Assembly: GCA_965116465.1 (NCBI GenBank)
Contig: OZ220687.1
Coordinates: forward strand, 1,894,321-1,958,320
DNA: 64,000 bases
Source: Acidimicrobiales bacterium
GTDB taxonomy: Bacteria > Actinomycetota > Acidimicrobiia > Acidimicrobiales > CATQHL01
Direction: 5' to 3'
Positions 36,366-38,535 of this stretch are shown here, piece after piece. Within the stretch, counting starts at the first letter, position 1; every line of letters starts with the position of its first letter. A program made the translations under genes and the position numbers. The notes beneath the pieces were generated by a model that worked only from the letters and a program-made list of their open reading frames with translations, ran no database searches and was not told the origin of the DNA.

Positions 36366-37483
36366 GTGTCACCTCCCAGACTTCGGGCCACGATTGCCCG
36401 GTGGATGTCGTTGGCTCCGTCCACGATCTGATTGACGGCGGCTTCACGCGCCAGGCGCTCCACGGTGCCGCTCTCGAGGAATCCCCAGCCTCCCAGCAGT
36501 TGCATGGACTCCTGCGTGACGTGTCGGGAGGTCTCCGAGGCGAGCACTTTGGCCGCCGAGACGGCCGGCTCGGCGGACGCTCCGGCGTCGTCGGCCGCGG
36601 CGTCGAGTTCGCCTGCGGCGGTCTGGAGGTAGGCGGCCGTGGCACGAACCCGCACGGCCAGGTCGCCCAATCGTTGCTGCACCGCCCCGAGCCGGCTGAG
36701 CGGCCGACCGAACCGCTCGGTGCGGGCCGTGTAGTCCACAGCCAGATCCAGCGCCTCCTCGGCGCCGCCGAGCGCCAGCCCGGCCGTGTTCAGCCGGCTG
36801 CCCAGGAGATGCGGTCGCAGCTCCGCCATGCCCTTGCCGGGCGTGCCGATGAGGTGCTCGGCCCCCAGGAGGCAGTCGCCGAAGGTTGCCTCGCAGATGT
36901 CGAGGCCGCGCAGTGCCAGTGTGGGGCCCATCGATTCGATCCTCACGCCGGGCGCGTCGGTCGGCACCACCAGCATCGAAGTGCCCTTGCCGTGACGTGC
37001 GAGCACCAACAGGTAGGGCAGCCGGTTGGCGTTGGGCAGGAAGGCCTTCCCGCCGTCAAGCTGCAGGTCGGCGCCGACCGGAGTCACCGTGCTTGCCAAG
37101 CGTGACAGGTCGTTGCCCGATCCCGCCTCGTTGATCGCCAGCATCGACAGGCAACGGCCCTCGTGGATGGGAGCCCCCCAGCGGTCCCACTGGTCGTCGT
37201 CGGCGTGGGCCCCCAGGTAGCCGGCCACGACGTTGTTCACCAGCACGGCCCCGCAGGCACGGTAGACCCGCCCGAGGGCTCGGGCCACTTGGACCACCTC
37301 GGTCCACGGTCGGGGTTCGCCGCCGCGCTCCTGTGGCGTGCGCAGGGCGCTCAGCCCGAGGTCGCGAGCCAAGCCCTCGAAGGTGCCTGCCGGGATGCCG
37401 TGACGCTCCCAGCCGGCCACGTTCGGGGCCACAGCGGCGCGCGCCGCGGCGCACAGAGCCCTCACCTCGGCCGTTGGCTTCAC
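36362..37483 (-). CDS. Acyl-CoA dehydrogenase-fold flavoprotein (Asp in catalytic loop), copy 1
   Basis: LAINEAGSGND, DGGKAF, RFGRPL, MQLLGGWGF, QIVDGANDIHR. Confidence 0.88.
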   Translation of the reverse strand: MKPTAEVRALCAAARAAVAPNVAGWERHGIPAGTFEGLARDLGLSALRTPQERGGEPRPWTEVVQVARALGRVYRACGAVLVNNVVAGYLGAHADDDQWDRWGAPIHEGRCLSMLAINEAGSGNDLSRLASTVTPVGADLQLDGGKAFLPNANRLPYLLVLARHGKGTSMLVVPTDAPGVRIESMGPTLALRGLDICEATFGDCLLGAEHLIGTPGKGMAELRPHLLGSRLNTAGLALGGAEEALDLAVDYTARTERFGRPLSRLGAVQQRLGDLAVRVRATAAYLQTAAGELDAAADDAGASAEPAVSAAKVLASETSRHVTQESMQLLGGWGFLESGTVERLAREAAVNQIVDGANDIHRAIVARSLGGDT

Positions 37484-38535
37484 GCCTCGCGGTCCCGGTC
37501 GATCCGGCGGGTTACGCCCTTGGACAGGCAGAAGCCCGAGAAGAACACCGAGTGAGAGGCGTTGCCTTCGGTGCCCCCGGCCACAAGAAGGTTCAGATCC
37601 TCGGGCGACTCACAGATGAGCACTCGATCGCCGTCGGTTGTCCAGTCCCCCTGTGGGATGTTGCCCTCGGGCGGGAAGTCGCTCAGTGGCACCTTGGCGG
37701 CTTCCCAGAGTTCGGCGCGCAGTTGCTGCTTGGTGTAGCCGGCGCGCACGAACACCCCGGCATGCGCCGGGCTCATCATCAAACTGGGCGTGCCCCGGGA
37801 GAAGAACTGGCTGGTGGCAGTGCTGCGCATGGTCTTGGCAAGCATCTTCAGGAGCGACGGGGCCGTCCACCAGACGGCAGTGCTGTTGATGACCGACTCG
37901 ATGCCAGTCACCGTGACCACCGAATCCGAAGCGTCGTAGCCCTTGGTGACGTGCAATGGTTCCCAGGGACTGGACTCCTCATCCTCGGCGACGCAGAGTG
38001 AGTACTTGGCGGGGCTGCCGTGAGTGGCCTGATCGATACCCACGTAGGCCCCGCCCACGTTGCGCATGGCCAGGCGGATCGCTCGCCCGATGGTGGCATT
38101 GGCGCGGTTTCCCGGGCCCAGGAGGTTGCGGTCGGTGTTCATGTCGATGGCCCGGCGGATTGGCCCGTTCACGATCAGAAGCGGCGTCGCCGGGTTGGTG
38201 GTGGCCTGGATGGCGTGCAGGTTGAACAACTGCTCGCACATGGCTGAGACGGCAGTCACGATCACCGGCATGTATTCGGGACGGCACCCCGCCATGACCG
38301 CGTTGACAGCCAGCTTCTCCACGGTGGCGACGCCCCGCTCGGGGTCCATGACGCCCACCTCGTGGTTGGCCCGCATGCCGGAGCCGGCCACCATGGCGGC
38401 GACGCGCGCCGGCGTGGGCATGACGACCGGCAGCCCATCGCTGAGATCCTGCTCGTGGAAGAAGTCCTGGAGTTCGTCGGGCCCGGCGGCTTCGGGAACC
38501 TCCAGGAGGCGAGACGTCAGCGATCCGATCGCCAT
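37480..38535 (-). CDS. Conserved 351-aa protein of unknown function, partner of the UGxC selenoprotein
   Basis: SDGLPVVMPT, TVEKLAVNAVMAGCRPEY, IVNGP, GPGNRANATIGRA, HGSPAKY, AEDEESSPWEPLH; 7 nt after the selenoprotein stop; GTGA overlap with the ACAD. Confidence 0.85.
   Translation of the reverse strand: MAIGSLTSRLLEVPEAAGPDELQDFFHEQDLSDGLPVVMPTPARVAAMVAGSGMRANHEVGVMDPERGVATVEKLAVNAVMAGCRPEYMPVIVTAVSAMCEQLFNLHAIQATTNPATPLLIVNGPIRRAIDMNTDRNLLGPGNRANATIGRAIRLAMRNVGGAYVGIDQATHGSPAKYSLCVAEDEESSPWEPLHVTKGYDASDSVVTVTGIESVINSTAVWWTAPSLLKMLAKTMRSTATSQFFSRGTPSLMMSPAHAGVFVRAGYTKQQLRAELWEAAKVPLSDFPPEGNIPQGDWTTDGDRVLICESPEDLNLLVAGGTEGNASHSVFFSGFCLSKGVTRRIDRDREA

Follow-up and report, generated by a model that had tools for sequence, protein, structure and literature searches.

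What a large protein of no named family does directly beside a bacterial selenoprotein is the question raised by a 351-codon open reading frame (ORF) of an Acidimicrobiales bacterium. This ORF, called Y351 in the following, is encoded on the minus strand at 37480..38535 (ATG start, TGA stop) of a 64,000-nucleotide (nt) stretch (assembly GCA_965116465.1, contig OZ220687.1, positions 1,894,321 to 1,958,320), referred to here as the window. A preliminary description, made from the letters of the window, had placed the ORF 7 nt past the stop of a selenoprotein gene, had quoted a set of motifs attributed to no characterised enzyme, and had proposed that the protein presents substrate to the selenocysteine (Sec) nucleophile as a functional analogue of PrdA/GrdE. 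The ORF and its setting were confirmed, and its coding strand is the minus strand. The selenoprotein stop (38543-38545) and the Y351 start (38533-38535) leave a spacer of 7 nt (38536..38542, minus strand), and the Y351 stop (37480-37482) overlaps the GTG start of an acyl-CoA dehydrogenase (ACAD) gene (37481-37483) as GTGA. That Y351 is a real gene is supported by its more than 7,968 homologues at E≤1e-3. As shown below, Y351 and its selenoprotein neighbour occur as an obligate pair in many phyla, and we examine what kind of enzyme this pair may be.

A gene pair conserved across phyla

The gene upstream of Y351 (38543..39079, minus strand, 178 amino acids) is a genuine UGSC-family selenoprotein. 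Its product scores 108 bits against PF24696 'UGSC' (cut-off 25), and its single in-frame TGA (38798..38800, minus strand) specifies residue 94 in the context GN-U-GAC, so that U-G-A-C occupies the position of the U/C-G-S-C motif of PF24696 and NF041046. The 71-amino acid C-terminal piece also matches NF041046 'UGSC family (seleno)protein', with a score below the NCBIfam cut-off of 125. The 3.53-Mb source genome, a single contig from a class-level group of Acidimicrobiia-like relatives, encodes a tRNA-Sec. No Sec insertion sequence (SECIS) family of Rfam matched at 38738-38800 of the minus strand, and the hairpin located 16 nt 3' of the UGA did not exceed shuffled sequence in stability (z = 0.78). 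A 'UGSC-containing protein' was catalogued by Zhang & Gladyshev in 2008 (PMC2398784), and reviews of 2022 and 2026 still give its function as unknown (PMC9312934, PMC13188914).

To describe the company kept by Y351, genomes were scanned at one per species, which gave at least 593 Y351 loci; the best 80 were examined, and the counts given below per locus refer to them. They span Acidimicrobiia, Dehalococcoidia and other Chloroflexota, Beta-, Gamma- and Deltaproteobacteria, Binatia, Rokubacteria, Methylomirabilota, Acidobacteria, Actinomycetes and one isolate related to Bacillus. A UGSC gene on the same strand was detected at 70 loci by tblastn and at 73 with a hidden Markov model built from those. 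It stands directly beside Y351 in 71 of the 73, and 1.5-2.4 kb upstream in loci L023 and L039. Among the seven loci lacking a local UGSC gene, three end at a contig edge and four belong to genomes that carry UGSC elsewhere. The first position of the motif is TGA rather than a Cys codon in all 69 UGSC neighbours in which it could be read, and U-x-x-C is retained in 69 of 70. Both gene orders occur: UGSC is upstream of Y351 in ∼40 loci, mostly with the motif UGSCTSW, and downstream in ∼31, mostly with UGSCT[STA]C.

Moreover, the two proteins are fused in frame in 9-10 of the 80 loci, always as UGSC followed by Y351 and with the TGA Sec codon as the only interruption; the carriers include a cultured isolate, Robertmurraya sp. 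2P01SA. The AlphaFold2 model of a natural fusion of 537 residues is of high confidence (predicted local distance difference test, pLDDT, 91.8; predicted template-modelling score, pTM, 0.91), except for a low-confidence linker of ∼25 residues. The 2008 catalogue (PMC2398784) mentions in passing that UGSC can be fused to a conserved domain without a name, 'Unknown_1'. Since Y351 is the fusion partner of UGSC in our loci, 'Unknown_1' is probably Y351. Apart from this probable one-line mention, Y351 is absent from the literature, and it has neither a family name nor a solved structure.

The same association was seen at the level of whole genomes. Among 251 genomes of the class to which the window belongs, 82 encode both proteins, one encodes UGSC only (a weak match) and none encodes Y351 only. 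Some of the UGSC partners found beside Y351 in this class have no in-frame stop and are presumably Cys forms. The copy numbers of the two genes are equal, with 1-7 copies per Acidimicrobiia genome (at most 7 and 7 in the class), and they reach 16/16 and 20/20 in two Burkholderiales genomes. Besides Robertmurraya sp. 2P01SA, Xenophilus azovorans DSM 13620 is a cultured carrier of the pair. The source genome has three of each, every Y351 beside a UGSC; the two further pairs lie outside the window, at C1:663237-665256 and 1239399-1240983, both with UGSC downstream. In a 5-Mb groundwater Chloroflexi metagenome-assembled genome (MAG; the L018 genome), the matches to UGSC and to Y351 each numbered at least 150 (208 and 235 candidates). 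Nearly all of these UGSC matches have a single in-frame TGA, and many are fused to Y351. If this MAG is not chimeric, its selenoproteome would, to our knowledge, greatly exceed any other described for a prokaryote.

Y351 and UGSC are thus an obligate unit, adjacent, sometimes fused and present in a 1:1 ratio. Because Y351 adjoins or is fused to UGSC at nearly every locus examined, they are very probably the two parts of a single selenium-dependent enzyme, hitherto uncharacterised, as judged from gene arrangement. The preliminary description had called Y351 a partner of the selenoprotein, to be checked by co-occurrence with UGxC proteins, and would have given up the idea had most homologues lacked UGxC/CGxC neighbours or had Y351 matched a known family. 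Neither was found, and same-strand adjacency, natural fusions, near-perfect co-occurrence in genomes and matched copy numbers all bear the partnership out. An adjacency due to chance or to operon packing could be argued from the other genes of the window operon (AtuA, DUF4387, ACAD), which are not conserved neighbours, but the co-occurrence and fusion data refute it and we regard its probability as negligible.

Conserved residues and predicted fold of Y351

Y351 was compared with Pfam, NCBIfam and the sequences of the PDB, both as a single sequence and as a profile of 46 sequences, and no match was found. Its homologues with a source name are all called 'hypothetical', and the only precomputed Pfam domain among them comes from one 393-amino acid variant that overlaps an ACAD (PF02771). 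The motifs of the preliminary description, namely DGLPVVMPT (33-41), NAVMAGCRPEY (78-88), NGP (123-125), GPGNRANATIGRA (140-152) and HGSPAKY (172-178), proved to be the conserved core of the family across the 80 loci. Residues D33, G34, N78, A82, G83, T113, G124, N146, G150, R151 and E184 are invariant in all 80. E186 and W191, conserved at >97% together with N123, P36 and P40, are nearly invariant, as is H195. Cys84, present in 79 of the 80 loci, is the sole near-invariant Cys, and Cys181 is kept in a majority of sequences only. In the one locus that departs from this rule (L056), Ala replaces Cys84 and the UGSC partner is normal; at another (L069), the fused protein reads U-G-S-S and has lost the resolving Cys. 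Both are useful natural 'mutants' for studies of the mechanism.

The AlphaFold2 model of Y351 (pLDDT 92.7, pTM 0.93) has an alpha/beta, single-domain-like architecture. When it was compared with the PDB by Foldseek, no meaningful fold neighbour was obtained. The top match, class I fumarate hydratase (E 4.7e-4), reached a template-modelling (TM) score of 0.29 with a root mean square deviation of 16 Å, and the next class, the Toblerone-fold cyclic amide hydrolases, had E ∼1e-2 and a TM score of 0.2; the deviations for both classes ranged from 12 to 16 Å, so that the likeness is local only. Kinship with the Fe-S fumarate hydratases was rejected on this TM score and on an hhalign comparison with Escherichia coli FumA (0.1%), and the three-Cys site of a [4Fe-4S] cluster is not present in Y351. 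The Toblerone-fold hydrolases were likewise rejected on their TM score. Having no match in Pfam, NCBIfam or PDB sequences and no meaningful neighbour among PDB structures, Y351 is treated here as a protein without a characterised relative, in agreement with the preliminary description, which had recognised no known enzyme in the motifs.

The fact that neither a known catalytic motif nor a cofactor site can be assigned in Y351 would suit a protein that assists UGSC or its maturation, such as a chaperone or a protector of the Sec loop, with no catalytic pocket of its own. We consider such a role quite improbable: Y351 is twice the size of UGSC and displays some 12 invariant polar residues across a well-folded protein of 351 residues, and stable fusion together with paralogue-by-paralogue co-expansion is atypical of maturation factors. 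For comparison, the maturation factor PrdH has only 92 amino acids (PMC11229817).

Relation to selenoprotein B and its pyruvoyl partners

GrdE and PrdA are the pyruvoyl-bearing partners of selenoprotein B in the glycine, sarcosine and betaine reductases and in D-proline reductase, respectively. The question of whether Y351 can be likened to them starts from UGSC. In the predicted structure, the UGSC half of the fusion (L006:5416-7026) is a five-stranded parallel beta/alpha domain in which Sec directly follows strand beta-3, at the N-terminus of a helix. Its PDB neighbours are LarB/PurE-like proteins, lumazine synthase and flavodoxin-like or Rossmann-like domains. The 'likely Trx-like fold' (Trx, thioredoxin) by which UGSC is described in the literature does not agree with this model, which consists of five parallel beta-alpha units and has no Trx-fold neighbours.

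An earlier hhalign comparison of UGSC with PrdB-like sequences, built from Global Ocean Sampling (GOS) reads only, gave 37%. After addition of authentic PrdB and GrdB sequences from Bacillota genomes, the comparison reached 95.8% (E 7e-9) over 68 columns, with Sec aligned on Sec and Cys on Cys. The motif '...G-D-U-GSC-T-[ST]-[WC]-S-x-HD...G-x-P-T-V...PHP-x-G' of UGSC can be set beside '...LTAG-U-GTC-HRS...GIPTV...' and '...LTST-U-GTC-TRC...AIPHPLGNP' of PrdB/GrdB. UGSC therefore shares with GrdB/PrdB (PF07355) the same Sec module, composed of a beta-strand, U-G-[ST]-C, a helix, a 'G-I-P-T-V' strand and PHP-x-G; it is shorter (178 versus 241-445 amino acids) and lacks their N-terminal parts. 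Membership of the GrdB/PrdB family was rejected, as only the 68-column Sec core aligns, and hmmscan gave no PF07355 match for the UGSC gene or anywhere in the source genome. UGSC is thus, by sequence comparison and predicted fold, a minimal, flavodoxin-like homologue of the selenoprotein-B Sec module and not a member of that family. The abundant marine 'PrdB-like' selenoproteins from GOS reads, listed in supplement 3 of PMC2398784, carry U-P-[VFLA]-C or U-G-[LI]-C, in contrast to U-G-T-C in authentic PrdB/GrdB, and form a further uncharacterised branch of the same module.

The homology of UGSC to the Sec-bearing core of GrdB/PrdB justifies a comparison of the whole system with Grd and Prd, and here the proposal that Y351 is a functional analogue of PrdA/GrdE stands in part. 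Like GrdE and PrdA, Y351 is a larger, non-selenium protein beside a U-x-x-C selenoprotein with a GrdB/PrdB-homologous core, as indicated by adjacency, fusion and co-occurrence. It also has a near-invariant Cys, Cys84, which may be compared with Cys242 of GrdE and Cys421 of PrdA, although the contexts differ (NAVMAG-C in Y351, SGN-C-VSACDK around Cys242 of GrdE). However, Y351 is not a member of the GrdE/PrdA family (PF09338, Gly_reductase), to which it gives no Pfam match at E≤1; the hhalign comparison with 11 GrdE/PrdA sequences (7 GrdE and 4 PrdA-type) yielded 0.1%, and that with full-length GrdB was negative. Furthermore, the main hosts of Y351 (Acidimicrobiia, Chloroflexota, Betaproteobacteria, Binatia and others) are not known to carry out Stickland fermentation. 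As the larger, conserved, non-Sec partner of a protein-B-type Sec module, Y351 may plausibly work like PrdA/GrdE, by analogy and without common descent. The absence of an obvious pyruvoyl-forming site, as had been remarked, is a fair statement of the case, with the qualification that Gly83-Cys84 is, from its sequence, a conceivable candidate for a cysteinolysis site.

The small size of UGSC (178 residues) and its flavodoxin-like fold could also be those of a dedicated redox carrier comparable to GrdA or thioredoxin. Y351 would then be self-sufficient through the near-invariant Cys84 and the frequently conserved Cys181, and Sec would never meet the substrate; the natural fusions of Y351 to Trx-like domains described below show that Y351 itself can join a thiol relay. 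A shared carrier, however, normally serves many clients, and the 1:1 co-expansion to at least 150 paralogues fits a co-evolving catalytic pair better. In addition, UGSC aligns with the core of the substrate-specific GrdB/PrdB, whose Sec attacks the substrate (PMC11229817), in a comparison restricted to these B-type selenoproteins. We therefore hold the carrier function to be a minor possibility.

Gene neighbourhoods and a proposed reductive function

Two kinds of evidence bear on the reaction, the domains joined to the pair and the genes around it. A Trx-fold domain of the AhpC-TSA/Redoxin type precedes Y351 at 10 of the 80 loci. These Y351 proteins are part of the clade with a downstream UGSC; the domain has the motif CPTC (CPTT in L052) and is followed by a conserved RPGCGSKSVEP linker. 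The UGSC partners at these loci carry an extra Cys (UGSCTTC), as does GrdB (UGTCTRC). Together, the Trx fusion and the extra Cys of UGSC point to a relay of thiols and selenols that draws on reductants of the thioredoxin type. The second Y351 copy of the source genome (663237-665256), of 490 residues, has the same type of N-terminal CPTC thioredoxin-like domain.

The commonest neighbours of Y351 all belong to organic-acid or acyl-CoA catabolism: TctC binding proteins (18 of 80 loci), CoA-transferase III (16), luciferase-like monooxygenases (13), enoyl-CoA hydratases (ECH; 11), short-chain dehydrogenases/reductases (SDRs; 11), MmgE/PrpD (8) and ACADs (7). Genes for TctC, DctP/DctM or SBP_bac_5 proteins lie within 6 kb in 25 of the 80 loci. 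In three regions of the L018 Chloroflexi MAG (L112-L114), SBP_bac_5 lipoprotein genes alternate with UGSC-Y351 units, either fused or adjacent, and the 1:1 radiation of paralogues looks like the substrate diversification of a catabolic enzyme. The second outside pair of the source genome (1239399-1240983) is divergent from genes that, judged by eye, resemble CoA-transferase A and B subunits and an SDR.

In the window, the pair belongs to a closely packed block of minus-strand genes, in the order double DctP, DctQ, DctM, AtuA-like, DUF4387, UGSC, Y351, ACAD, SDR and beta-keto acid cleavage enzyme (BKACE). Upstream of the pair lie the genes for a TRAP transporter (40862..44947), made of DctM (40862-42145, 1e-102), DctQ (42158-42709, 1.6e-20) and a duplicated DctP (42758-44947), then an AtuA-family protein (39402..40865; PF07287, 6.4e-20) and a DUF4387 protein (39076..39402; PF14330, 4.8e-28), whose stop overlaps the UGSC start as ATGA. 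Downstream follow the ACAD (36362..37483; Pfam Acyl-CoA_dh_N/M/1), which is local context outside the conserved unit, an SDR (35619..36365; Pfam adh_short_C2, 4e-55) and the BKACE (34531..35600, start approximate; PF05853, 9e-44). The SDR, BKACE, AtuA and DUF4387 genes are local context as well. AtuA, DUF4387 and ACAD beside the pair are shared with the closest relative (L001) only, and a literature search on AtuA and DUF4387 returned nothing relevant. On direct reading, no obvious Shine-Dalgarno sequence was seen in the 7-nt spacer, and UGSC and Y351 are for this reason likely to be translationally coupled. The DctP gene encodes a 729-residue protein with a tandem duplication of two near-identical domains (Pfam DctP, 1.7e-154, in two stretches), in which the block 'DVEALPELTLSVGHSGAPDGFADIASVKFKE...' is present twice. 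The source organism is sponge-associated, and positions 34300-45100 are almost completely covered by sponge metagenome runs and one sponge metatranscriptome run; short-read contigs leave a gap at 43686-44407, of the kind that a collapsed repeat in the duplicated DctP would produce.

Taken together, the Trx fusions, the catabolic neighbours, the binding-protein genes and the 1:1 radiation favour a cytoplasmic, Trx-linked and Sec-dependent reductive step on imported compounds that bear a carboxylate. We propose, with somewhat better than even confidence, that Y351 and UGSC make up a two-component selenoenzyme acting on imported organic acids, in which Y351 is the subunit that lacks selenium and binds the substrate, and that the pair of the window would be one step of a translationally coupled operon for organic-acid or acyl-CoA catabolism. 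Y351 would supply the substrate pocket, for which D33, N78, C84, T113, N146, R151 and E184 are candidate residues together with E186, H195 and W191, and the U-x-x-C loop of UGSC would dock onto it. Sec would then attack a small carboxylate-bearing substrate imported via the neighbouring TRAP, tripartite tricarboxylate transporter (TTT) or ABC binding-protein system, as the Sec of GrdB/PrdB attacks its own substrate (PMC11229817). A selenenyl-sulfide might form with the Cys of UxxC, with Cys84 or with both, and be re-reduced by thioredoxin-type proteins. The outcome would be a reductive bond cleavage similar to that of the Grd/Prd 'protein B', and we file the system as a selenoprotein-B type two-subunit enzyme with an unrelated large subunit.

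The same neighbourhoods can be read in another way. They are rich in enzymes of CoA esters (ECH, ACAD, MaoC, PrpD, CoA-transferase), among which isomerisations are common, and most Y351 copies, including that of the window, have no Trx domain. The pair could thus be a non-redox isomerase, racemase or lyase of an unsaturated or alpha-substituted carboxylate or acyl-CoA, in which Sec, with Cys84, would act as a transient nucleophile or as part of an acid-base pair and the Trx domains would protect the selenol. Against this, U-x-x-C is retained in all but one of the 70 readable neighbours; the additional Cys that UGSC has at +6 in the Trx-linked clade is, as in GrdB, typical of a selenenyl-sulfide redox cycle, and the homology of UGSC is to reductase selenoproteins. 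We consider non-redox catalysis unlikely.

Several observations weigh against the proposed Trx-linked reductive enzyme. The Trx fusions could merely keep Sec reduced in an enzyme that performs no redox chemistry. No neighbour beyond the pair is universal among the 80 loci, and a transporter is near only about one-third of them. The homologue without Cys84 (L056) and the fused UGSC without its resolving Cys (L069) lack residues on which the mechanism draws. The negative comparisons of Y351 with GrdE/PrdA, full-length GrdB and FumA count here as well, and, as there is no meaningful fold neighbour in the PDB, the chemistry of Y351 cannot be read from relatives. Finally, contigs of a sponge metatranscriptome include Y351 and extend past its 5' end into UGSC, DUF4387 and AtuA, but their depth is about that of the DNA run, so that DNA carry-over is possible.

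A bolder form of the proposal, which we put forward tentatively, with a lower but still substantial probability, is that Y351 and UGSC represent a new class of selenoenzymes, with a catalytic-subunit fold without solved relative and a Trx-driven reductive cleavage alpha to a carboxylate. C-N, C-O or C-S bonds would be cleaved in imported organic acids or in compounds that resemble peptides or opines; a pyruvoyl group arising from cysteinolysis at Gly83-Cys84 might serve as the electrophilic handle, and the class would have radiated into many substrate-specific paralogues, in the L018 genome often beside a gene for a solute-binding protein.

The definition of a partner makes the function of UGSC, an abundant and long-known orphan selenoprotein, testable. 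The constant company of Y351, the occasional single polypeptide and the stripped-down GrdB/PrdB Sec module give UGSC, so far a mere item in catalogues, its place in a defined and probably two-subunit enzyme. The 'selenoprotein B' chemistry would in this way reach past the anaerobic Stickland fermenters into several other widespread phyla. The pair also exposes very large selenoproteomes, which have remained unannotated since gene-calling programs cut each UGSC in two at the TGA. As its paralogues are paired one by one with solute-binding proteins, the substrates can be approached directly. If the pair does constitute a new class, it would correspond, as a catabolic system of bacteria other than Stickland fermenters, to the Stickland reductases of clostridia.

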